Assembly: GCA_964646355.1 (NCBI GenBank) | Contig: CAZYEE010000002.1 | Location: 1-45,909, forward strand | Direction of reading: 5' to 3' | Source: an uncultured archaeon | Lineage (GTDB): Archaea; Asgardarchaeota; Lokiarchaeia; Helarchaeales; HEL-GB-B | Length of the DNA stretch: 45,909 nucleotides | Shown: in pieces, positions 13,948 to 37,393 of the stretch | Layout: each line of letters opens with the position of its first letter | Position numbering within the stretch: position 1 is the stretch's first letter | Notes under the pieces: generated by a model | Seen by the model: the letters and a program-made list of their open reading frames with translations, nothing else | Database searches by the model: none | Told to the model about the DNA's origin: nothing | Position numbers and translations under genes: made by a program

Positions 13948-13949
13948 AA

Positions 13950-14105
13950 ATGATAAATATCCATCTTCAAATATTATTAAGTCCTCTTTTAATTATAATA
14001 ATTGGGGATATAGCTGGTAAAGTTAATTTATTCCAAAAAAATGAAATAATTTTACTTAATAAATTATCATTTTTTTTGAGATTCCATTTACTTCAACTTA
14101 ATTGA
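13950..14105 (+). pseudogene. Possible truncated N-terminal remnant of an auxin-efflux-carrier (AEC) family permease, or a small membrane peptide
   Basis: My own translation of a 51-codon ORF gives MINIHLQILLSPLLIIIIGDIAGKVNLFQKNEIILLNKLSFFLRFHLLQLN. It resembles the conserved N-terminus of AEC permeases (hydrophobic helix, G, then short polar loop, LNKL). No downstream continuation exists in any frame. Confidence 0.3.
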
Positions 14106-14228
14106 TTGAATCGAAAATTTTTTAATACTCGAAGATATGTTTTGTATATAGATGTAAAAGTAAGAATAAAAGTCTTCGATAAGTATTAGAATAGTGCAGG
14201 GATAGCCAAGCGGTCAACGGCGCTGGAC

Positions 14229-14255
14229 AATCTGGGATTTTCCCGGATTCCAGAC
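14229..14255 (+). other. tRNA-Leu intron 1 (27 nt), non-canonical position about 32/33
   Basis: A 4-bp helix CTGG(14223-26):CCAG(14050+200-53, i.e. 14250-14253) is flanked by the bulge AC(A) on the 5' strand and ACT on the 3' strand. The inner intron hairpin is AATCTGGGA-TTT-TCCCGGATT. Because GAC is duplicated, the junction can slide by up to 3 nt without changing the mature sequence. Confidence 0.7.
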
Positions 14256-14260
14256 TCAAG

Positions 14261-14276
14261 GTCTATGTGATGTGAA
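14261..14276 (+). other. tRNA-Leu intron 2 (16 nt), canonical position 37/38
   Basis: Relaxed BHB. The central helix is C14255-G14274, (T.T), C14257-G14272, A14258-T14271. The bulges are AGG (14259-61) and AAA (14275-77). The inner pairs are T14262-A14270 and C14263-G14269. Confidence 0.75.
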
Positions 14277-14307
14277 ATCCAGTCGTGTAGACGTTCATGG
14301 GTTCGAA

Positions 14308-14334
14308 AATTCTCCCATTATGGGAGGTCGAAAT
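14308..14334 (+). other. tRNA-Leu intron 3 (27 nt), T-loop position 59/60
   Basis: Strict hBHBh' motif. The outer helix is the T stem ATGGG:CCCAT. The central 4-bp helix is TTCG(14302-05):CGAA(14329-32). The 3-nt bulges are AAA (14306-08) and ATT (14333-35). The inner hairpin is CTCCCA-TTA-TGGGAG. Splicing gives the consensus T loop TTCGAAT. Confidence 0.85.
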
Positions 14335-14360
14335 TCCCATTCCCTGCACTATCCTTATTT

Positions 14361-24325: not shown

Positions 24326-24568
24326 TTATTCGATCTTATTTTCTTGATATATTCTTATTATTTTATTCTGACTTAATTCTCCTTTTATAATATTTATTGC
24401 GGATTTTTTGATATTAAAAAATTCAGAAAGCACCTTTATTAATTCTTTATTAGCTTTACCTTTTATGGGAGGTGCCTTTAGCTTGATCTCAAAATAATCG
24501 TGTGAGATCTGCACAATTTTAGTCTCTTTTGATCCTGGTATTACATGTACCTTTATAGTTTTTGTCAT
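24326..24568 (-). CDS. DUF167/YggU-family small protein
   Basis: V.PGSK....I......I.L.APP..GKAN.ELIK.LS..F.I.KS.I.I..G..S..K.I.I is the family signature. 80 aa. Confidence 0.75.
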   Translation of the reverse strand: MTKTIKVHVIPGSKETKIVQISHDYFEIKLKAPPIKGKANKELIKVLSEFFNIKKSAINIIKGELSQNKIIRIYQENKIE

Positions 24569-24729
24569 GAAAAAACCTATTATAGTTAAAGTAATAAGAG
24601 CAGGTTATATTTAATCTAAGTTAGCATTTTTTAAGATATAAGAAATTGTTATTCTTTTAGAATAAGGATAATAAAATATAAATTAATTATGAATATAAAA
24701 GAAATAAATTAAGATAAGTATAATATAAA

Positions 24730-26397: not shown

Positions 26398-29300
26398 TTA
26401 ATTATAAGATTCGCGTTTTATACAAGTTATCCTTGTAAAACCCTTCTTTTTATGAAGAGAATAAATTCGTTGAGCAAATACTCGAAGATAGGACTTTCTT
26501 GGGGTAGTAACTATATATTGACTACTATTAGAAAGTTGTACCAACAATTTTCCCAGTGATTCGCAATGTTGATCATCTAAATGAGCATCAATTTCATCAA
26601 GAAAATACCAAACACTTTTTTTAAGTAGTCTTTGAATTGCAAAAATAATACTTGCGGCGACTATACTATTTTGTCCACCTGAGAGAGATCGAGTACTTGA
26701 TACCACACCAGAGCCCATATCTACCCTTATATCTACTCCACTTTCAAGTGGAGATTGTGGATTAATTGAAATTAGTTCAATACTACCTTTAGGATGTATT
26801 TTATTAAAGATATATTTTAAATTCTTATTCAATTTATCTAAAGTTTCAATAAATTTTTGCTTCTTTTGTTCATAAAGATCATAATATAAATCAGAAGCGG
26901 ACTCTAATTCCTCTTTGCAGGTCTTTCTTTTTTCAACTAGTTCATTAATCTTTTTCATTTCTTCCTCATATTTTTCGGGAGCTGTGGGGTCAACAGGGCC
27001 CAATTTGCTTAACTCCTCTTCTAATTTTTCAATTTCAAGGTCTATTTCTTTAAAATCAATTTCCTTTATCTCATCAATTTTTACACCGAGTGATGCCATT
27101 TTATCCTCAATATTTTTAGCTCGTTCTAAGAGAGTGGATTTAGATTTATTTAACTCATTAATTTCATATATTAAACCTTTAATTTCTGCATCTATCTCCT
27201 CTTTTTTATCTACAATTTTTGCCCTTCTTTTTTGTATAGACTCTAATTGTTCATTAATCTCTTTGATTTTATTATCGATTTCATCATATCGTTCTCTTTG
27301 AGTATCTATCAGCTTTGTTAATTCCTCTCTTTCTATATCTAGTTCAGACCGCTCTTTTTCTACTTCTTTAATTTGATTTTGATACTCCTGTATCTGGCTT
27401 TCAAAAAAGGCGATTCGTGAATTGTAATTAAGAATTTCGGTATTATATCGTGCAATTTCTTTTTCTGAACTTGAAATTTTTTTATGTAAAGAAAGAATCT
27501 GCCCTTGTTTCTCTTTTATTTGATTTTCGACATTACCTAATTCAGTATTATCAATTTTAAGTTGAATTTCAGCCATTTTATTTTCTAATTCTCGAATTCT
27601 TTCGATAGTTAATCCTAATTCGGCGTCAAGATTTTCAAATTGTGTGACCGCTTCAATATATTCATCTTCTAATTTTCTATAGTCCATTATTACTTTATCT
27701 AGTATAGGATTAATTTCTAGAACTTGATTTTCTAGCTCCAAAATTCTTCCGTCTAACTGAGCTAGCTCTTCAACAATTTCAATTCGTTTCCGATCAGACC
27801 TCTCACGATCAGTGGTTAATTTGGTCACTTTTTTTCTTAATTGTGTATAATGACCTGTTAATTCTTCAAGTTCAAGTTTTACTTCGTAAATTTTTCGTCT
27901 ATAAAATTCATTAATTAATAAAAATCTTGAATCAAATTTATTTAATATCACAATCTCGCCAGTGGGCTCCACCAGAATACCGTCCTTAGTCACGCATCTA
28001 AAATTCGAATATTTTAATGCGGTATCGAGATCGACGACTAATAAAGTATTCTGAAATATTGCTTTGAATAATTTTTCATATTTTGGATCATACATAACAT
28101 AGTCAATAATTTTTCCAAGAACTTTGCTATCAGCTGGCACTTTCAATTCTTTAAACTCTTTAATATCGTTTAATGAAAAAAATGAGATTTGGCCAAAATT
28201 TAAGTCATTAATTTTCTGGGTAATCTCTTCTATATCATGATAATTATTTACCACAATATTTTGAAGTTTCTCGCCCCCCGCAATTTCAATAGCAAGAGCA
28301 TAATCCTTTTTTATATCAGAAATTAATTCTAAGGGAGTACCAATTACTGTTTTTAATATGCTATCGTCTCTTAATTTGAGTATTTTCTGTATTTCATCTG
28401 AATATCTAGGAATCATTTTTTCAAGTCTTATTTCGAGTTCATGTTTTTTCTCCGTTAATTCATTTATTTGTTTTTCATATTCGGTAATATTATAAAATAA
28501 ATCTCGCATTTCATCTTGACTATACGTTAAAAAGGTTTCAATTTTGTTTTTTTCATTACGTAAACGGTTTGATTTTCTTTGCATTCTGGTAAGTTTGCTG
28601 TTTATATTATTTAAAGAATCTTCTAATTCATTTTTTCGATTTAATAAGCTTTCTCGTTTATTTGATAGAATTTCAGTCTTACTCCTCCATTCAGTACGAA
28701 ATTTATCAATTTCATTCTTTTTTTGTTCTAGTTTTTTGATCTGTTCGTCTATTTTTTGGCGTTCTAAAGTAAGATATTTATATTCATCTTCAAGAGCAGG
28801 TAATCTATCTTTTAACTTTAAAACTTCCAGTTGCAGTTTTCTGCTTTTCTCTTTATTTTCTTTATCTAATTCTCTGATTTCAGATAATTTTTTCTCTGCT
28901 TTTTTTCTTTGATCTATGAGTTTCTTGATAGACTCATTTCTAAAAGTATTAATTTTTCTTTTAAATTCATCGATTTTTTCTTTTTTCTTAAAAATTTCAT
29001 CATTTATTCTATTTAAATTCTGAATTTGAATGCTGGATGCACCTGCCATCCGCATTTTTTCCTGTTCCAGCTTAGTACGTTTTAACCTTTCTTTTTCAAT
29101 CTGACCTCTTATTTCAGAAATTTCAACATCAAGTTGAGAAATTTGATTTTCCAGCTCTTTTATCTTGTTATTTCGTTCATTTATTTGATTATCGTGTTCA
29201 GAAATTTTTGAATTAAGTCTATTCAAAACGGATAATAATTTTAAAGCTTTATTATAATTTATTTTTTGCTTTATTTCTCTATATTTTAAGGCTTTATCTC

Positions 29301-29919
29301 TAGATTTTTTATATTTCTCTAATCTATTTTTAGCATCTTCTATAAGTAGTTCAATATGGTACAAAACATTTTTTGCATTATTTATTTTAGCTTCTGCTTC
29401 TGATATTTTTGGGTCATATTGAGATACACCTGCAATTCTTTCAATTAATTTTCTAAGACTCTCAGGAGATTCATTAATCTTAGTAGATATTTCTCCTTGT
29501 TTTACCATATTAAATCCATTTTGATTTATTCCATACTTGGCTAAAACTTCTTGAATCTCTGATAAAGAAGCGTTATTGCCATTTAATTTATAAACACTAT
29601 AAGCCCGCCCACTTTTTGGGACCCTTAATTGTCTTGTAATGGTTATAATTTCATTTTCTTCATCATCACTAAATATTAATGTTACTTCACAAAAATCAGC
29701 CATTCTCTGATTTATTGTAAAGTCTTTACTTATTAATTCAATTGCAGTACCTTCTAATCGATCATCATGTCCTCCTAATGCAAATGATATGGCATCTAGA
29801 ACGTTCGATTTACCTGTACCATTATTTCCCGTTAAAAGAGTTATCTTTTTTGAAAAATCTATTTCAAAAGATCCATTAAAAGTTTTGAAATTTGTTATAA
29901 TAGCCTTAGATAAGTACAT
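26398..29919 (-). CDS. smc: Chromosome segregation ATPase SMC
   Basis: Walker A GNNGTGKSNVLDAISFALG, with long coiled coils flanking a central hinge (about aa 520-680). Signature LSGGQNS and Walker B WYFLDEIDAHLD. 1173 aa. Confidence 0.95.
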   Translation of the reverse strand: MYLSKAIITNFKTFNGSFEIDFSKKITLLTGNNGTGKSNVLDAISFALGGHDDRLEGTAIELISKDFTINQRMADFCEVTLIFSDDEENEIITITRQLRVPKSGRAYSVYKLNGNNASLSEIQEVLAKYGINQNGFNMVKQGEISTKINESPESLRKLIERIAGVSQYDPKISEAEAKINNAKNVLYHIELLIEDAKNRLEKYKKSRDKALKYREIKQKINYNKALKLLSVLNRLNSKISEHDNQINERNNKIKELENQISQLDVEISEIRGQIEKERLKRTKLEQEKMRMAGASSIQIQNLNRINDEIFKKKEKIDEFKRKINTFRNESIKKLIDQRKKAEKKLSEIRELDKENKEKSRKLQLEVLKLKDRLPALEDEYKYLTLERQKIDEQIKKLEQKKNEIDKFRTEWRSKTEILSNKRESLLNRKNELEDSLNNINSKLTRMQRKSNRLRNEKNKIETFLTYSQDEMRDLFYNITEYEKQINELTEKKHELEIRLEKMIPRYSDEIQKILKLRDDSILKTVIGTPLELISDIKKDYALAIEIAGGEKLQNIVVNNYHDIEEITQKINDLNFGQISFFSLNDIKEFKELKVPADSKVLGKIIDYVMYDPKYEKLFKAIFQNTLLVVDLDTALKYSNFRCVTKDGILVEPTGEIVILNKFDSRFLLINEFYRRKIYEVKLELEELTGHYTQLRKKVTKLTTDRERSDRKRIEIVEELAQLDGRILELENQVLEINPILDKVIMDYRKLEDEYIEAVTQFENLDAELGLTIERIRELENKMAEIQLKIDNTELGNVENQIKEKQGQILSLHKKISSSEKEIARYNTEILNYNSRIAFFESQIQEYQNQIKEVEKERSELDIEREELTKLIDTQRERYDEIDNKIKEINEQLESIQKRRAKIVDKKEEIDAEIKGLIYEINELNKSKSTLLERAKNIEDKMASLGVKIDEIKEIDFKEIDLEIEKLEEELSKLGPVDPTAPEKYEEEMKKINELVEKRKTCKEELESASDLYYDLYEQKKQKFIETLDKLNKNLKYIFNKIHPKGSIELISINPQSPLESGVDIRVDMGSGVVSSTRSLSGGQNSIVAASIIFAIQRLLKKSVWYFLDEIDAHLDDQHCESLGKLLVQLSNSSQYIVTTPRKSYLRVFAQRIYSLHKKKGFTRITCIKRESYN

Positions 29920-29934
29920 TTTAACAACATCTAA

Positions 29935-31614
29935 TTATTTATTTAATTCAAATTCAGTAATAACTTCATTATATTGATCATCGGTAAAAGATATAGTATA
30001 TTTTTTCCCAATTTTTGGAAAGAGAATTGAATATGGATTTTTATTTAAAGTCCTTTTTAACGTTTCAATATTTATTCCGGCTACTTTTTGAATTTCACTT
30101 AAGTCTAGGGCTCTCTGTTCTGTTTCAAATAATTTAGCTAATCTTGAAATCAAATTATAATTATCAGATAGCGCAAGTCTCAGCGCATTCTTGATCATCT
30201 TTTTGTTTATTAACATTTGAGAGTTTAATGCTTCGATTTTTAATTCAATTTCTTCTAAATCAGAGGAACTAGAATAAATCTTATCTGTGGTAGATTGAAC
30301 TTTAGAAATTTTTTTCAATCTTGGAGAAAACTTTGATTTTTGAGCAACAATATTATTAAACGAAAATTGGATATCATCTTCAGAAACATATTCTTTATTT
30401 TCATTGATTGATTTAAAATAAGCTCCTTCAACTATCTTTACAAGATCTTTGCAGGAAAGCCCATCCATATTTTCATCCATAGTTAAATTGCTCACTAAAA
30501 TATTGATATCTAGATTTTCATCCAAATTAATATTTTCTAATAATCTATGTAAGATTTCAGAACGTGCAACCTCGTTTGGATAGTCAAATAAACAATATTG
30601 ATCAAATCTTGACAAAAGCGGTTGATCTAGATCGTCCAGATCTATTGTAGTACATATAACCAAAACTTTATCATTACATAAATTAATTTTATCTAAGAAA
30701 TTTAAAAAATTAAGAAGTGCCATGTTTGAGATTTCCGAATTAAATATTAACTGAACATTTTCGATTAATAAAATACAAGGTATTATATTTTCATTATTTT
30801 TTACGAGATTAATTATATAGTCAAGCGATTCAATCTGAAATTTGATATTATTTGCTAATAATAATGGTAAATTTAACTCTAAAATATTTAATGACAACTC
30901 TTTTGCTATTGCATAAACTGTAGATGTTTTTCCATTTCCTGGTGGGCCATAAAGTAATATTTTTGAGTCAAAATTGTATAATTGCTTAGGTAATTTGATA
31001 AGCCGTCCTCTTGATAATATAAGATCTTTATTTGATTGATAATCACCCAGCATTTCCAAAGTAATTTTGATGTCTTCGGGGGATACGATTTTATATATCT
31101 TTTCAATATTTGAACTTTCTTCGGAATCTGGGGCAGATTTGATTAAGTTCTTGATGGTATCTTGGAATTCCTGAGTGATTTTTCTGATTTCTTCTATGAT
31201 AGAATCAGTTCCATAATCTCTAATTGCGCCCATATTAATTTCAATTTGACCATCTGCTACTTGGGAAATTATCGAATCAACCTTTTTAGCCCAATTATCT
31301 ATTTTATTATAATTAGTCTGTAGCTCAGAAATATTCTTTATATTGTTTTCAAGCTGACTTTTAATTTCAACTAAATCTTCTTTTATTACTACCAGATCTG
31401 CACCTAATTCAGATAGCTCTTTACCATTTAAAAGTCTCAAGCTTTCGCTTAATTTTTTACTTAATTCTGATACCTTGCTTGTAATAATATTAAAAGCTTC
31501 TATAACTCCTTCAGCTTTCGGGACGTCTCCTTCAGGAGTTGCAATTCTCTCTATTACGATATTTTTTTTCTCAGACACTTTGACCAAATCCCTATAGTTA
31601 TATATTATCATCAA
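29935..31614 (-). CDS. Classic-clade AAA+ ATPase with N-terminal coiled coil and C-terminal winged-helix-like domain
   Basis: Walker A LLYGPPGNGKTST. The Walker B position reads CILLIENV, so the Asp is replaced. It also has a sensor/second region of homology (VICTTIDLDDLDQPLLSRFD..., P.EVARSEIL). The stop is 15 nt upstream of the smc start on the same strand. Confidence 0.8.
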   Translation of the reverse strand: MMIIYNYRDLVKVSEKKNIVIERIATPEGDVPKAEGVIEAFNIITSKVSELSKKLSESLRLLNGKELSELGADLVVIKEDLVEIKSQLENNIKNISELQTNYNKIDNWAKKVDSIISQVADGQIEINMGAIRDYGTDSIIEEIRKITQEFQDTIKNLIKSAPDSEESSNIEKIYKIVSPEDIKITLEMLGDYQSNKDLILSRGRLIKLPKQLYNFDSKILLYGPPGNGKTSTVYAIAKELSLNILELNLPLLLANNIKFQIESLDYIINLVKNNENIIPCILLIENVQLIFNSEISNMALLNFLNFLDKINLCNDKVLVICTTIDLDDLDQPLLSRFDQYCLFDYPNEVARSEILHRLLENINLDENLDINILVSNLTMDENMDGLSCKDLVKIVEGAYFKSINENKEYVSEDDIQFSFNNIVAQKSKFSPRLKKISKVQSTTDKIYSSSSDLEEIELKIEALNSQMLINKKMIKNALRLALSDNYNLISRLAKLFETEQRALDLSEIQKVAGINIETLKRTLNKNPYSILFPKIGKKYTISFTDDQYNEVITEFELNK

Positions 31615-31789: not shown

Positions 31790-32302
31790 ATGGACGATTT
31801 AGATTTTAATATTACATTAGGAGAAGTAAAAGGTTATTGGAATTGGAAACATAACATACCCTTATTTAGATTTACCGAGGGTAGAGGCGAAAATTGGAAG
31901 AGAAGATTAAAGGAAGAATTGGAAAAATTAGAGATACTAAAGAAATATGGTAAAGAAAAAATATTCTTTGAGGATATAATTTTAGACGAAAGAAATGACA
32001 GAATTTTTCATTGTCTTAGCAATATAAAAGGTAAGAAAATTGATATTGTTATAAGATTACCCGTGCGATATCCAAAAGATCCACCTCTTGCGGACTTTTC
32101 GGTAGGACCATGGGCATTTCCCAGTGAAGCTGGTATTAGATCTGCATGTTTAGGCCAAATTTACAGTAAATGGGATAGGACCGGAAGGATGGGAGTGGCG
32201 CATTTTGTAGGGATGTTAGGTTCATATATAGCTCTTGCCCTACATTCAATTTCAACCCCAAGAGTAAAAAATGAAAATCTAAAAAGACGAAAAAAGCATT
32301 AA
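31790..32302 (+). CDS. UFC1-like (UFM1-conjugating-enzyme-like) E2, paralogue 1
   Basis: 170 aa, against 167 for human UFC1 as I recall it. WKRRLKEELEKL matches UFC1 WVQRLKEEYQSL. IRLPVRYPKDPP matches IPITYPTTAP. The candidate catalytic Cys120 lies in SACLGQIYSKWDRTGRMGVAHFVGMLGSYIALA, compared with [34 protein letters not shown]. There is no HPN motif, as in UFC1. Confidence 0.8.
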   Translation: MDDLDFNITLGEVKGYWNWKHNIPLFRFTEGRGENWKRRLKEELEKLEILKKYGKEKIFFEDIILDERNDRIFHCLSNIKGKKIDIVIRLPVRYPKDPPLADFSVGPWAFPSEAGIRSACLGQIYSKWDRTGRMGVAHFVGMLGSYIALALHSISTPRVKNENLKRRKKH

Positions 32303-32320
32303 ATTTTTATAAAGAGGGTG

Positions 32321-33157
32321 ATGATCATAGATTTTGCGGATATTGCAGATGAGATAAAATCAGAAATGAGACCATGGACTGAAGTTGAGGTAATTATTTC
32401 CGATATTCAAGGAAATATAAAGTATTCAGATATTTTTTCTCAAAAGTTTTTATTAGCACTCTCAAGATTTATTAAGAAAAAAGGTCCAACTTTTGCAATC
32501 GGGGATTATTACTATATCCAAAATGTTTCTGGTGTCATGCTCTTCAAAACTTCGATGAACAGTATGGTAATTCTTAGAACACAACAAAAATTAGGGATTT
32601 TATTGATCTTTCTTAAAATATTAGAACGTATAGGACTTGAAATTGATATTCTATTAGGAGATTATATTCGAATAGAAAAAACACCACCAAAATATTGTGA
32701 TCAAGAGTTCATTCCCAGAGAAATACCATTATTTAATATCATTGCTAAACCAAATTCTCCAAATTGGCTTGACAGGTTACAAGAGGAATATGATAAATTA
32801 AATTATTTATATAGATTAAGAGATACTTATTCAACATTTAGTATATATAAACAAGCAAATAGTAATAGAATTTTCAAATGTTCATTCCAAGGTATTGTAT
32901 TCGATCTCAGATTAAGCCTTCAATATCCATTTGTTATGCCTATTGCTGATGGCTTTTATTTTGGTCGATGGTTTAATCCTGCAGGAGATCATAAAAATGC
33001 ATGCTTAGGCATATTAAAAAATAGATGGAGACCCGATGGAAGAATGGGAATCGCTCATTTTATTCAATTATTAGGATATTATACCTCTATAGCAAATTCG
33101 AAACCAGTTGAATTTAAGGTAAGACAGCCAAGAGCAATAAATATTCATTTTTATTAA
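32321..33157 (+). CDS. Roadblock/LC7-like N-terminal domain fused to a UFC1-like E2 domain, paralogue 2
   Basis: The N-terminal 115 aa or so fit the Roadblock pattern (EVEVIISDIQGNIKYSD...VMLFKTSMNSMVILRTQQKLGILL). The C-terminal half has WLDRLQEEYDKL, LSLQYPFVMP and NACLGILKNRWRPDGRMGIAHFIQLLGYYTSIA. The Cys codon is at 33002-33004. It starts 15 nt after paralogue 1; GTG is at 32318 and ATG at 32321. Confidence 0.75.
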   Translation: MIIDFADIADEIKSEMRPWTEVEVIISDIQGNIKYSDIFSQKFLLALSRFIKKKGPTFAIGDYYYIQNVSGVMLFKTSMNSMVILRTQQKLGILLIFLKILERIGLEIDILLGDYIRIEKTPPKYCDQEFIPREIPLFNIIAKPNSPNWLDRLQEEYDKLNYLYRLRDTYSTFSIYKQANSNRIFKCSFQGIVFDLRLSLQYPFVMPIADGFYFGRWFNPAGDHKNACLGILKNRWRPDGRMGIAHFIQLLGYYTSIANSKPVEFKVRQPRAINIHFY

Positions 33158-33257: not shown

Positions 33258-34082
33258 CTATCTTTTTTCTTGAATATCACCACATGTATCGCAATTTTTT
33301 CTAGGAGTTAGATTAAAGTACTGGAGCGATACATCTTTTTCAAGTGAAAATCTTATTTGTGAAGGTATTGGCTCATTTAAAACGAGTTTTATTCCTTGAT
33401 CTGCTTGAAGACTGCCCGTTATATTCATAGTTGTTGCCAAACTTGCGCCGCAAGGTATTTTTGGAATTTGTATTTGAGATTCATCAGGTTCTAGGTCTAT
33501 CAAAGTATCATAGCTATAATAGCATTCTAAACAAGGTGTCTTTCCAGGTATTACATTATTAACAATCCCTCTTAATGCATTTTCAGATGTACCACCATCT
33601 ATTAAAGGTTTTCTTGATATTACCGCATATAGATTTACCTCAATCCTTGCAGCTTCATTATCAAAACATGTAAAAATAAGATTAGATTTTCTTATCAACT
33701 CTTCTAATTTGTCCCAAGCAATTATATCAGCCAAATACCATTCAGTTTTAACATGAAACTTTTTATCGATTTCAGGGAGATTTCTTGTCCGTTCTAAGAA
33801 TTTTGCCAAGGTTTCAGATTTACTTTTTCCCAAATCTTCTTCGTGATGGTTCATACGATTCAAATTTTCCTCAGAAACGATATCCTTGTCCACGATTATA
33901 AATTTTCCAAATCCACATCTATTCAAAATATCTGCTACAATTCTACCAAGTCCACCAGCGCCCCCAATAAATACCGTGGTATCTAGAAATTTACGGACAT
34001 CATAGCCAGCAAATATAACTCGTGAAAACATTTTTGGCATATTCAAAGCAAGCTCTTCTCGTTCTTCAACTGGAATCAACAT
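33258..34082 (-). CDS. UBA5-like E1 (ThiF-fold adenylating enzyme with catalytic-Cys loop)
   Basis: [68 protein letters not shown] matches UBA5 [50 protein letters not shown] matches UBA5 [26 protein letters not shown], which contains the catalytic Cys. The second zinc pair is CDTC near the C-terminus. Confidence 0.85.
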   Translation of the reverse strand: [274 protein letters not shown]

Positions 34083-35150
34083 TTAGATATACCACCCAAA
34101 TGTGTCAGTTATTAAAATATCTAATATCAGATCAAATAGATTCTTAAAAAAAATTAAATTAATCTTTTTATGCTCTTCAATTATTTTCCATTCTAATGGT
34201 GTTTTTATTTTGGAAACTTTAGTATAATTTGGTAAAATTTTATCATTTTCAACAAATCTGAGTTTAGTTATTTCGGATTCGTCTATTTTAATAAGGTCTA
34301 ATAAAATATCTCTTAATTTATACAAAGTATCATCTTGATCCAAGAAAATCCGAATTAGAATATCCTCATTTAAACCAACATTTTTTAAATAAACAGGGTA
34401 TCGTGGAGGAATGTCCAATTTTTTGGGTATTTGATCCAACTTTAAATCATAGGGAATAGGTATATTATCTATTTCAAAATCAGATCTCGAAAATAATTTT
34501 AATAATTCATGCCCTATTTGGTCTAAGAATCGATACTTTAAACCTTTTACATTTTCAGATTTTTGTGCTACCAGTTTTAGATCTATTTTAAGCGAAATTT
34601 TTTTCTCAATTAACTGTTCATAAGGTTCGAGTTCTCGAATTTCTACTTCTACTTCATAGATATTATTTTCAGTGGCTGTATAGCCTGCTATTCCATCATA
34701 CGGCTCTACAATATAAATTATAAAGGCATTCTGAGAAGAACCTTTACCATATAATAGATAATCTTTTTTATCTGTTCCGCTATAACCTAAAAATCCTGGA
34801 TGTTTATGCATATTTCCAACAATATCAAGCCCAGCAGGTAATCCAGCCCTTATTCTGGCTATTTTTTTTAATCCGGATTTTATAAACGCACCTGATTGCT
34901 CAGTATAGTCGAATTCAATTAAATCATAAATATAACAAGTCTTACCTCTAAATAAACCTACAATATAAAACCCTACCTCATTTGGTGTTTGACGACCGAT
35001 ATCTAATGCCTTTAACCATAATTTTGTAGGTAATATTATTTTATTTACTATGGGTTTATCTTCATGTTCTATATCTAAATACCCAAATTCACTTTCATAA
35101 TCATCATATTTCTTTTTATAACGTTGACTTTTTCTGAAAAACAAGATCAA
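34083..35150 (-). CDS. JAMM/MPN+ metalloprotease domain fused to a C-terminal beta-grasp (ubiquitin-like) candidate segment and a hydrophobic tail
   Basis: Glu in PNEVGFYIVG. The metal/catalytic motif HKHPGFLGYSGTD (H115, H117, S124, D127) is at nt 34770-34808. Residues about 251-324 (PVYLKNV..ILIRIFLDQDDTLYKLRDILLDLIKID..KLRFVENDKIL..LEWKII) have a beta-beta-alpha-beta-beta-beta pattern. The last 27 or so aa are hydrophobic (LIFFKNLFDLILDILITDTFGWYI). TTG start. The gene is flush with both neighbours: a 5-nt gap upstream and 0 nt downstream. Confidence 0.7.
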   Translation of the reverse strand: MILFFRKSQRYKKKYDDYESEFGYLDIEHEDKPIVNKIILPTKLWLKALDIGRQTPNEVGFYIVGLFRGKTCYIYDLIEFDYTEQSGAFIKSGLKKIARIRAGLPAGLDIVGNMHKHPGFLGYSGTDKKDYLLYGKGSSQNAFIIYIVEPYDGIAGYTATENNIYEVEVEIRELEPYEQLIEKKISLKIDLKLVAQKSENVKGLKYRFLDQIGHELLKLFSRSDFEIDNIPIPYDLKLDQIPKKLDIPPRYPVYLKNVGLNEDILIRIFLDQDDTLYKLRDILLDLIKIDESEITKLRFVENDKILPNYTKVSKIKTPLEWKIIEEHKKINLIFFKNLFDLILDILITDTFGWYI

Positions 35151-35155
35151 AACCC

Positions 35156-35704
35156 CTAAATGTTAATAGGTCTGCTTTTTCGTTCTAATGCATAATAATA
35201 TCCGATCATGGTACAAAAATGTGCAAGACCAAATCTTCCATCAATTCTCCAGCGCTTTATAAGTTTTCCAAAACATTTATAAGCAAGAGAGACATGAAAA
35301 TCACCCTCAGACCTCTGAACTAAAGGAATTTGCTTCGGATATAAAATTGATAACCTTATTTCTAATTTCATAGGTTTTGAACCTTTTGAAAAATAGAAAT
35401 CGGCGCTCCAGATTCTCGTATTATTGCTTTCATGTTTCAAATTGTCAAAAACATAAAAACCTACCGAATGTATGTATTTTTCTTTTAAAATATTAAAAAT
35501 TTCATATTCTTCCTGGACTCGAAGGTTCCATTTGGTCGATCTTGGAGTATAAATATTTTTAAACAATGGTAATTCTTCAAAAATAGCATCGCTTTTAATC
35601 TTAAGTTCGTATGGAGTAAGAAAATTTTTCCGAATAAATTCATTCATATCTATTGAAATATCGTCGAAGTATTTTCGCATATCAAGATAATCTTTGTCCG
35701 TCAA
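35156..35704 (-). CDS. UFC1-like E2, paralogue 3 (most divergent)
   Basis: WNLRVQEEYEIF, IRLSILYPKQIP and YKCFGKLIKRWRIDGRFGLAHFCTMIGYYYALE. The Cys144 codon is at 35273-35275. 182 aa, TTG start. It is the first gene of the E2-JAMM-E1 operon. Confidence 0.75.
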   Translation of the reverse strand: MTDKDYLDMRKYFDDISIDMNEFIRKNFLTPYELKIKSDAIFEELPLFKNIYTPRSTKWNLRVQEEYEIFNILKEKYIHSVGFYVFDNLKHESNNTRIWSADFYFSKGSKPMKLEIRLSILYPKQIPLVQRSEGDFHVSLAYKCFGKLIKRWRIDGRFGLAHFCTMIGYYYALERKSRPINI

Positions 35705-36508
35705 TTTCAGTTCCCATTATTAATAAAATGTTAATTTTATTTAAAGTATTTGAATTTAATATTTTAAAATATAGAGCTCATAATTTAACAAATCATTTTT
35801 GAAAATAACCAGTTTTTTTATTAATGTCTAAAAAATATATCTATAAGGAATTACCTTTTTATTGAAAATATTTGATTCTTTCATTGGAGTAAAATAACCA
35901 TCACGTTTTTTATATCATTTAACCGAAATCATTAAACTAATCCTTGATTTTAATTTTTTTATTTTTGTGGATAAGCTTAATTTTTACACCATTACTAAAA
36001 ATAATAATGGATATTGGATCAAATTAGGAGAATTTTCAAGAAAAATTACACTTTACACTTTACAATCGAAAAAAAGATAAAAATACAATGATGAATTTAT
36101 TAGTAATTTATGAATTAATTCTGAATAATCAGAAAAAAAATAAAAATTCACTGTAAGAATTTTAGGATTAATTTACGGTGATTTTATTTTGCAGACTAAA
36201 AAATCAAAATATTATAATAAAAGTAGTAAACAATACGGCAGACAACACAATAAACAAAAGATTGTTCAATATTTACATGTTTTTAAATCTGTATCACTTA
36301 AAAAATTGAACAAGATATCCGGCTGAACTTTAATGAAATTCAAGAAATAATCAATAATGAATTAAATTCGGGGAGAATTATCGGGGAATTTAAATTTGGA
36401 ATATTTTATAGGGATCTAGATATATCCAAAAAAAAGAAGGAACTATTATTAAAATATATAAATGAAAATGATAAGATTTTTTTAGAGGATGCCTCAAGGA
36501 TCGCCCGA

Positions 36509-37393
36509 TTGAGTCCAAGACAGACTCGTGACTTAATTGATGAATATTTAAATGGAAATATAATTAAAGGGAAATGGAATTCAGAAAAAAATCTATTTAT
36601 CAATTTTGCTGTAGAAAGTGTTTCAAAAGAATTAGAGGTAAAAAGAGATTTTGATTATGTTGGAGGGAATGTACGCTTTAAAGTGGTCGTGAGAAATGTC
36701 ACAAAGATGCCAATAACAGATATTAATGTAATATTAAATGTAGGTGGACAGTACATAATTGATGAAGAGTCCAAAAAGGTTGAGGCATTAATGCCTGGAG
36801 AAACGAGGGGGGTAGATTTTATGCTTACACCAGTCACATGCAGAATATCAAAAATATTAGGACTGGTCACCTATTATGACCCATTCAATGAAATGCATAG
36901 TATTACTATAAGACCAAAGGATATTCGAATTAAATGTCCTTTAGTAATCCCCGCTGATGCAACAAATAGCGAAATAATTGAATGGCAAAAATCATTGTTA
37001 AAGGGTTATAGCGTTATTCAATATAAGGATTTACCACCAAATCATGTTTTTAATATAGTCTGTGATCAAATATCTTCTTTAGATTTAAAATTAATCAGCA
37101 GGAATGATGAAGACCTAATCTCAACTTATGCAGGAATAACAAAAATCTCTAACTCAAAACTTGTGGTAGTCGCTAAAATTAATCGTGATGAAATCAAAAT
37201 AGCAACATGGACTCCATCATTAAAAGAAGCTACGGGGTTTATTGCATATTTAAAGAATCTAATCAATATTGCACTAGATGCATCCCAATTAAAAGTAGGT
37301 ATGGAGAAAATAGGACAAAAAATCATTAGGCTTTTTGAAGTATCTCAAAGATTAATTACATTATACGAGTTTTGTAGAAAAAAGAATCAGTAG
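36509..37393 (+). CDS. Winged-helix + beta-sandwich protein, function unknown; true 5' end probably lies upstream of 36509
   Basis: The WH-like N-terminus is FLEDASRIARLSPRQTRDLIDEYLNGNIIKGKW. The Ig/CARDB-like segment is GGNVRFKVVVRNVTKMPITDINVILNV...LMPGETRGVDFMLTPV. The same frame stays open back to 36302 (69 codons) with no ATG, GTG or TTG in it. Confidence 0.65.
   Translation: MSPRQTRDLIDEYLNGNIIKGKWNSEKNLFINFAVESVSKELEVKRDFDYVGGNVRFKVVVRNVTKMPITDINVILNVGGQYIIDEESKKVEALMPGETRGVDFMLTPVTCRISKILGLVTYYDPFNEMHSITIRPKDIRIKCPLVIPADATNSEIIEWQKSLLKGYSVIQYKDLPPNHVFNIVCDQISSLDLKLISRNDEDLISTYAGITKISNSKLVVVAKINRDEIKIATWTPSLKEATGFIAYLKNLINIALDASQLKVGMEKIGQKIIRLFEVSQRLITLYEFCRKKNQ

Follow-up and report, generated by a model that had tools for sequence, protein, structure and literature searches.

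Operons that combine an E1, an E2, a JAMM protease and a ubiquitin-like protein (Ubl) are already known in archaea and bacteria, and the kind of system described here is not new. In the archaeal ubiquitin operon of Caldiarchaeum subterraneum, the Rpn11 homologue both processes the ubiquitin precursor and deconjugates (PMC6043591). Among the components of the UFM1 pathway, UFM1, UFC1 and UFSP2 have been stated to occur in eukaryotes only (Picchianti et al., PMC10183829); Kostlbacher et al. list Ufm1 homologues in nine Asgard clades, some within longer proteins or with several match regions (PMC12962969). Here we analyse a stretch of 45.9 kilobases (kb) of Asgard archaeal DNA with about 29% G+C (contig CAZYEE010000002.1; "the window" hereafter means this whole stretch) and, within it, a JAMM/MPN+ protease gene whose product carries its own C-terminal ubiquitin-fold (UBL) domain. 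The system shares with the Caldiarchaeum operon the linkage to E1, E2 and small Ubl genes, and precursor trimming and deconjugation would be expected here too. With the eukaryotic UFM1 pathway (UBA5, UFC1, UFM1, UfSP1/2) it shares an E1 whose best match is UBA5 and E2s whose profile matches UFC1 best. Our reading is that this Rpn11-type JAMM protein probably acts as processing and deconjugating enzyme in an Asgard-specific UBA5/UFC1-type Ubl cascade, in which the fused UBL domain is not the modifier and the modifier is a separate protein of ~90 amino acids (aa) ending ...PDQLG. The gene and its parts, in window coordinates, are as follows.

34083..35150, minus strand: JAMM/MPN+ protease gene with C-terminal UBL domain (355 aa, TTG start)
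34638..35042, minus strand: MPN+ (JAMM) catalytic domain, residues 37–171 (motif conservation and Foldseek)
34977–34979, minus strand: codon of E58
34770–34808, minus strand: H115-x-H117...S124..D127 motif
34401..34637, minus strand: ordered middle region, residues 172–250, an extended segment plus helices 201–220 (predicted local distance difference test, pLDDT, 81–96)
34182..34400, minus strand: UBL domain, residues 251–323, predicted topology beta-beta-alpha-(alpha)-beta-beta-beta (AlphaFold2 (AF2) models and Foldseek)
34098..34157, minus strand: predicted C-terminal amphipathic helix, residues 332–351, then an aromatic tail, FGWYI (AF2, pLDDT 61–74)

A search of 5.8 billion proteins for homologues of the JAMM protein returned only 26 clusters, all of them unnamed or "hypothetical" and none with a Pfam domain annotation. 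Those with a taxon label belong to Helarchaeota, Lokiarchaeota and Hodarchaeota, together with one contig binned as Deferrimicrobium. The JAMM residues E58, H115, H117, S124 and D127 are invariant in 26/26 homologues (29–59% identity to the window protein), and in the same alignment E215, K218, S221, R222 and P249 of the middle region are near-invariant. The AF2 model of the full-length protein, computed with the homologue alignment as input, has a mean pLDDT of 82.7 and a predicted template-modelling score (pTM) of 0.75; across the MPN domain, pLDDT is 84–97 at residues 30–80, dips to 59 at 81–90 and is 73–96 at 90–171. Foldseek matched the whole model to Rpn11, Caldiarchaeum Rpn11, BRCC36 and CSN5 (E 1e-8 to 1e-6, probability 1.00). 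The protein does not reach the curated Pfam threshold for PF01398 or PF14464 (Prok-JAB E 0.11, at 12.9 bits where 25 are required), which we attribute to sequence divergence and not to loss of the active site; a Pfam scan of the family gave weak matches at most, in 7/26 members. We conclude from alignment and model that the gene product is probably an Rpn11-type JAMM isopeptidase, with its active-site residues intact. The same open reading frame (ORF) is called as 353 aa in another assembly of this DNA.

The UBL domain was modelled twice independently with AF2, within the full-length protein and as residues 240–330 alone (overall pLDDT 86.5). Both models agree on strands at 251–256, 266–270, 297–301, 304–306 and 319–323 and on helices at 276–286 and 291–296, then 332–351, and the UBL fold itself is predicted with pLDDT above 90. 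The top 50 matches of the isolated domain in the PDB are all ubiquitin or Ubl domains (ubiquitin, SUMO, FAT10 and UBL domains), the best being 5m93_B (E 7.5e-4, target-normalised template-modelling score 0.75, root-mean-square deviation 2.6 Å), and UFM1 is absent from these 50. As modelled, the fold is closest to ubiquitin, not to UFM1. In the 26-homologue alignment R267 is invariant and F269, L279 and L306 are near-invariant; within the close clade the UBL domain is 41–53% identical, against 72–77% for the MPN domain.

Much of this had been anticipated. The original prediction, made from the letters of the DNA, had read an intact JAMM signature at the same five residues, and these stand at the positions it gave. 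It had placed a beta-grasp at residues about 251–324 and assigned its strands and helix; since the two AF2 models return the same elements, that assignment was correct, and the structure prediction and Foldseek search that it had proposed gave a ubiquitin-like, not an all-helical, region. Its hydrophobic helix after the beta-grasp corresponds to the modelled helix 332–351, and its E2-JAMM-E1 operon to the UFC1-like and UBA5-like genes described below. Its caution about the glycine of the terminal ...TFGWYI was also justified, this position being K or W in close homologues.

The end of the protein was considered in other roles. Helix 332–351 was rejected as a membrane anchor: it holds 4 charged residues and is therefore no transmembrane segment. 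The ...GWYI terminus was rejected as a Ubl tail or HbYX motif, its Gly and Tyr being unconserved in the close clade. Homologues with longer tails (P0008–P0022) end in a conserved LDY[FY][IT], and many of these tails repeat an amphipathic motif (e.g. LLPIFKNFHKFL..., LQPILKNFFTFL...) flanking a variable charged or polar linker; the repeated motif may be a partner-docking peptide.

The fused UBL is most likely an integral, non-conjugatable domain and not the modifier, because of what follows it, what it resembles and where it occurs. No conserved Gly follows the last strand (beta5): at each of positions 324–333, at most 1/26 sequences has one. Instead a helix comes after the domain, and the protease lies N-terminal to it. 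Comparison by hhalign found no similarity to the free Ubl family (probability 0.5%) or to the UFM1 profile (probability 1.7%), and Pfam UFM1 was also unmatched. The domain, or at least its N-terminal half, is shared by all 26 members of the JAMM family and by the divergent high-GC loci L017 and L018, whose proteins retain the N-terminal half with the invariant Arg. Every locus examined outside the window's clade has the fused domain together with a free ...PDQLG Ubl gene, including those in which the two genes adjoin.

The gene context of this free Ubl family was surveyed in 35 fetched loci (L numbers) with profiles for four protein types. In L001, the locus of a distant member of the JAMM family, the E2 gene is directly preceded by one for an 89-aa protein that ends ...GTPDQLG* (L001:9038–9304), and the Hodarchaeota-type locus L003 has an 88-aa gene ending ...GSPDQLGF*. 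Members are small (~90 aa) and highly conserved; the closer clusters are 60–91% identical, with P85-D86-Q87-L88 and G89 invariant. Beyond the Gly, roughly half of the family has a further 1 to ~140 aa as a tail, as in C-termini such as ...PDQLGL and ...PDQLGYIPLNNNLI, and more distant ones end ...PDMLG, ...PDILG or ...NELG with variable tails, P0063 being the exception. Such a pattern, with the terminal Gly conserved and the tail beyond it variable, marks a Ubl whose activation would follow trimming by a protease. A profile of the family, run against 1.84 billion proteins, reached only 13, and 0/8 of those scanned matched Pfam UFM1. The exception, P0063 (174 aa), is a tandem repeat without a terminal Gly, and three members (P0055, P0051 and P0043) have extensions of 30–140 aa beyond ...PDQLG, one of them annotated by JGI as "Mor family transcriptional regulator". 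The tailed and tandem members would fit the Ufm1 homologues of Kostlbacher et al. (PMC12962969), if the two families are the same.

The position of the free Ubl gene separates the clades. In the higher-GC "long-tail" clade (L001, L014, L015, L019–L022, L027 and L032), Ubl, E2, JAMM, E1 and E2 are co-linear; the Ubl also adjoins the system in L003/L016 and in the divergent L017 and L018, and locus tags lie two genes apart (ACTSRS_13250/13260, VMV49_12765/12775). The full Ubl-E2-JAMM-E1-E2 operon, with an archaeal histone gene, was also seen in L013 (DATKTP010000204.1), binned as the bacterium "Candidatus Deferrimicrobium sp."; this is probably a mis-binned Asgard contig. The clade of the window (L004, L005=L012 and L006) has low GC, a JAMM protein of ~355 aa and the layout E2-JAMM-E1 / E2-fusion-E2 / AAA-SMC, and its operon is without a Ubl. 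The place of the Ubl is taken by an iron-dependent alcohol dehydrogenase gene or, in the window, by a gap of 804 nucleotides (nt).

Relatives with such operons have the gene elsewhere. GCA_014729825.1 encodes the JAMM protein on contig WJJF01000618 and a 92-aa ...PDQLGL protein on WJJF01000227. On the Helarchaeota contig Ga0366834_1002995 the Ubl gene stands with E2-JAMM-E1 on one side and AAA-SMC on the other, 9.5 kb away from the E2. In metagenome Ga0190360 a JAMM contig of the Hel_GB_B type occurs together with another, low-GC contig that carries the Ubl, and L024 and L005 come from the same metagenome. For the window itself, tblastn over the whole 45.9 kb with two Ubls and human UFM1 found nothing, and a six-frame search with a hidden Markov model (HMM) of the free Ubl family gave a best E of 3.6, as opposed to 1e-47 to 1e-55 at control loci. 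Ubl contigs looked up as the source organism's own belonged to other samples, and the Ubl loci in JGI metagenomes had no overlap with the window. The original prediction had seen no free ubiquitin- or UFM1-like ORF between 31615 and 36508, which these searches bear out and extend to the whole window. Of the two homes it had proposed for the modifier, the fused domain did not stand, and a gene encoded elsewhere was found in the relatives (GCA_014729825.1, Ga0366834_1002995) while the window's own 45.9 kb is without one. Judging from gene order across the loci, the free Ubl gene has moved out of the operon in the low-GC clade of the window.

The remaining components of the cascade, and the genes next to them, are as follows.

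26398–29919, minus strand: SMC
29935..31614, minus strand: Cdc48/VAT-class single-domain AAA ATPase with N-terminal coiled coil, a possible partner
31790..32302, plus strand: second UFC1-like E2, 170 aa, with basic tail
32318..33157, plus strand: third UFC1-like E2, 279 aa, fused to a conserved ~130-aa N-terminal domain
33258..34082, minus strand: UBA5-like E1, 274 aa (Pfam ThiF 2e-37; UBA5 best in the PDB)
35156..35704, minus strand: UFC1-like E2, 182 aa, with invariant Cys144 (E2 profile against the PDB)
35705..36508, no strand: 804-nt gap at the position of the free Ubl in deeper clades; Ubl remnant not found

The E2, JAMM and E1 genes are packed closely: 5 nt separate the end of the upstream E2 from the JAMM start, and the E1 ATG directly abuts the JAMM stop codon. 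Between JAMM and E1 there are 0 nt in L004 and L005, as in the window, and 9–23 nt in L003 and L001; in L006 the two genes share 8 nt. Against the PDB the E1 matches UBA5 at 1.7e-21 and the next E1 families at about 1e-11; its catalytic Cys aligns with that of UBA5 (CGASLATTM versus CAASLPTTM), as do the Zn motifs (CLEC versus CFAC). It ends directly after the adenylation domain, without a C-terminal extension, and is 100% identical on ENA contig ERZ27248458:k141_829306. An invariant C...W...G..G..HF signature unites the three E2-like proteins with the corresponding proteins of five related loci. A profile of 16 E2 sequences matched UFC1 in the PDB at 8e-10 to 7e-9 with the Cys aligned, versus 1e-4 or worse for canonical UBC; single sequences gave only sub-threshold UFC1 matches in Pfam. 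These comparisons make the E1 UBA5-like and all three E2s UFC1-like, and the system would therefore be a UFM1-type cascade, restricted to Asgard archaea, with an Rpn11-like protease. None of the eight locus proteins scanned gave a UfSP-like match, the operon's protease being the JAMM protein, and no RING E3 was seen in the operon. The neighbouring ORF 36302–37390, tried as a UFL1/DDRGK1-like E3, was rejected, having no Pfam match.

The ~130-aa N-terminal domain of the 279-aa E2 (32318–32710, plus strand) is conserved in L004, L005 and L006 (...VVISD.QGNIKYSD...GDYYYIQNVSGVMLFKTS...) and has no Pfam match, and this E2-fusion paralogue was seen only in loci of the clade in which the Ubl is unlinked. 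Loci of the Loki-, Hel- and Hodarchaeota types (L003, L005, L006 and L011; 26398–31614, minus strand, in the window) keep the AAA ATPase and SMC-ScpA-ScpB genes in synteny with the Ubl system, and in L003 Ubl, E2, E2 and AAA form a tight same-strand cluster with gaps of 3–20 nt. This hints at the AAA ATPase, or even SMC, as a partner or target of the Ubl system.

From family membership and gene context, the UBA5-like E1 and UFC1-like E2s would conjugate the free Ubl, and the JAMM protease would cleave after its terminal Gly, both in precursors, where it would trim the tail, and in conjugates. A docking or regulatory role would fall to the UBL domain and amphipathic helix. They may dock onto the E1, which is translationally coupled and has no E2- or Ubl-binding extension, onto an E2, or onto the AAA ATPase of the Cdc48/VAT class encoded nearby. 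A division of labour of this sort has been described for ThiF, where a version with a fused ubiquitin-like domain co-occurs with standalone ThiS and the fused domain was read as having a different role (PMC1779556).

Several observations weigh against this reading. In the JAMM motif, 6 residues separate the second His from the Ser, as opposed to the canonical 7; in Hodarchaeota-type members there are 7. Existence of a free Ubl in the source organism is deduced from its relatives, the DNA of its own that was searched amounting to 45.9 kb. The free Ubl gave zero matches to Pfam and PDB sequences, and its hhalign alignment with UFM1 (PF03671) is weak, with 66 columns in register (probability 16.6%, E 0.0015). 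Length class, the single Gly after an aliphatic residue and this in-register alignment are together only suggestive of a relationship between the free Ubl and UFM1.

A more ambitious proposal would make the operon a prokaryotic sister or ancestor of eukaryotic UFMylation, its ...LG modifier being UFM1-like alongside the UBA5-like E1 and UFC1-like E2s, and an Rpn11-like JAMM standing in for UfSP. The UBL domain and helix of the JAMM protein would supply in trans the E2- or Ubl-binding modules that the minimal E1 lacks, and JAMM and E1 would act as one split enzyme coupling tail-trimming, activation and deconjugation. We put this forward tentatively and expect that it will more probably fail than hold.

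We think it unlikely that the UBL domain and C-terminal helix are specifically the E2-recruiting module of a minimal E1, provided in trans like the ubiquitin-fold domain (UFD) of canonical E1s, within an obligate JAMM-E1 complex that couples tail-trimming to activation. UBA5 has C-terminal UFM1- and UFC1-binding peptides. The Asgard E1, at only 274 aa, ends with the adenylation domain and lacks both these peptides and a UFD. The tight spacing of the JAMM and E1 genes across clades points the same way, and in prokaryotic systems JAB and E1 are typically fused or adjacent (PMC1779556). However, the best Foldseek matches of the UBL domain are free ubiquitin and Ubl domains, not the UFDs of E1s, and the proposal is pure inference.

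Less probable still is that the UBL domain acts in cis as a pseudo-substrate, or as a docking handle for the neighbouring AAA ATPase, by analogy with USP-type UBLs and with Rpn11 on the proteasomal AAA ring. The full-length pTM of 0.75 suggests a fixed packing of the domains, the ATPase is of the Cdc48/VAT class, and its gene is syntenic in L003, L005, L006 and L011, with the tight cluster of L003 also holding the Ubl and two E2s. Yet the AAA gene always adjoins SMC-ScpAB, and the synteny may therefore reflect a link to SMC-ScpAB instead.

That the fused beta-grasp is itself the modifier, freed by self-processing of the JAMM protein or acting in cis as the original prediction had suggested, we regard as very improbable. 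It would explain a locus without a free Ubl gene, and none is present in the window; the fold is ubiquitin-like by Foldseek, and there is mention of Ufm1-like segments within larger proteins of Asgard archaea (PMC12962969). Against it stand the lack of a conserved Gly in the 10 residues after beta5, the lack of similarity to the free Ubl family, the presence of the same fused domain where a free Ubl adjoins, and the finding that close relatives with the same Ubl-less operon have a free Ubl elsewhere. Moreover, the domain is C-terminal to the protease, and its release would therefore need two cuts.

A sulfur-carrier pathway of the ThiS/MoaD type, without protein conjugation and with the JAMM protein only unmasking the carrier, can be set aside almost entirely: the E1 also matches ThiF and MoeB models, but its PDB match to UBA5 is better by ten orders of magnitude than that to MoeB/ThiF, the three E2s have an invariant catalytic Cys, and the operon holds neither a rhodanese domain nor cofactor-biosynthesis genes. 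An anti-phage defence system was also considered and rejected, PADLOC giving no match for the JAMM protein, the E2s or the Ubl and only generic E1-E2 adenylation-domain matches for the E1 (about 1e-11).

Other parts of the window gave observations of their own. A GC island at 14150–14350 (plus strand), within a 413-nt gap at 13948–14360, has 42–51% G+C against a background of about 25%, and its plus strand folds with z = -5.7. It starts GCAGGGAUAGCCAAGCGGUCAACGGCG and ends CCCUGCA, like an intron-interrupted tRNA; ARAGORN and Rfam made no call. A 294-aa ORF (TTG at 36509; region 36189–37393, plus strand) is open upstream to 36302 without ATG, GTG or TTG, and the extended ORF has no Pfam match. 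A 45-aa ORF in another frame (36189–36326) ends ...LNKISG*, and reading across the two gives a plausible continuous helix-turn-helix-like N-terminus, which suggests a frameshift or sequencing error near 36320. Finally, an unlisted 92-aa stop-to-stop ORF at 24326–24604 (minus strand; ...KVHVIPGSKETKIV...IKLKAPPIKGKANKELI...), which we take to resemble the DUF167/YggU family, is not a Ubl (free Ubl HMM E 7.9).

What is unusual in this locus is its UBA5/UFC1 character, its restriction to Asgard archaea and its total lack of annotation, the members being "hypothetical" and the JAMM protein, E2s and Ubl without a Pfam domain. In the literature searched we found no description of the operon, nor of a JAMM protease with an integral ubiquitin-fold domain. 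With E1, E2s, protease and a candidate modifier in one compact operon, in vitro tests of how UFMylation arose would come within reach, and such a JAMM protein could reveal the way in which early deubiquitinases were held to their partners.

Set beside known proteases, the JAMM protein has the MPN+ fold and HxHPGF-type JAMM motif in common with Rpn11 and Caldiarchaeum Rpn11, its top Foldseek matches. It differs from them in its ordered middle region, ubiquitin-fold domain and amphipathic helix, and in a spacer with one residue fewer. UBA5/UFC1-type E1 and E2s take the place of the Uba1/UBC type of Caldiarchaeum, and the Ubl terminates in LG, with one Gly, instead of GG. Compared with UFM1, the Asgard Ubl is likewise ~90 aa long and ends in a hydrophobic residue and Gly plus a removable tail, with a weak in-register alignment, whereas neither it nor the fused domain reaches Pfam UFM1. 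The Asgard pathway uses a JAMM protease in place of the UfSP cysteine protease, three E2 paralogues and an E1 without the C-terminal peptides of UBA5.

Precedents for a ubiquitin fold on a pathway enzyme come from several directions. The eukaryotic deubiquitinases USP14/Ubp6, USP7 and USP4 are cysteine proteases with an integral UBL that lacks a C-terminal Gly and serves docking or allosteric control. They share with the window protein a non-cleavable ubiquitin fold on a Ubl protease, theirs being cysteine proteases and ours a JAMM protein; no JAMM enzyme carrying a UBL domain is known to us. ThiF with a fused ubiquitin-like domain (PMC1779556) likewise has a fused beta-grasp on a pathway enzyme beside a free Ubl, but there it is N-terminal, on the E1, and in another lineage and pathway. 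A sparse precedent for a ubiquitin-like domain fused to JAB is the TAPI-JAB fusion of an E. coli prophage (Iyer, Burroughs and Aravind 2006, PMC1779556), which differs from the window protein in being a phage tail protein of another lineage. Bacterial E1-E2-JAB systems, that is, Cap2/Cap3 of the cyclic oligonucleotide-based antiphage signalling system (CBASS) and the Bil/Bub operons, follow the same operon logic of E1, E2, JAB and Ubl; unlike these, the Asgard locus lies in conserved housekeeping synteny (AAA-SMC-ScpAB, eRF1) and not in a defence island.

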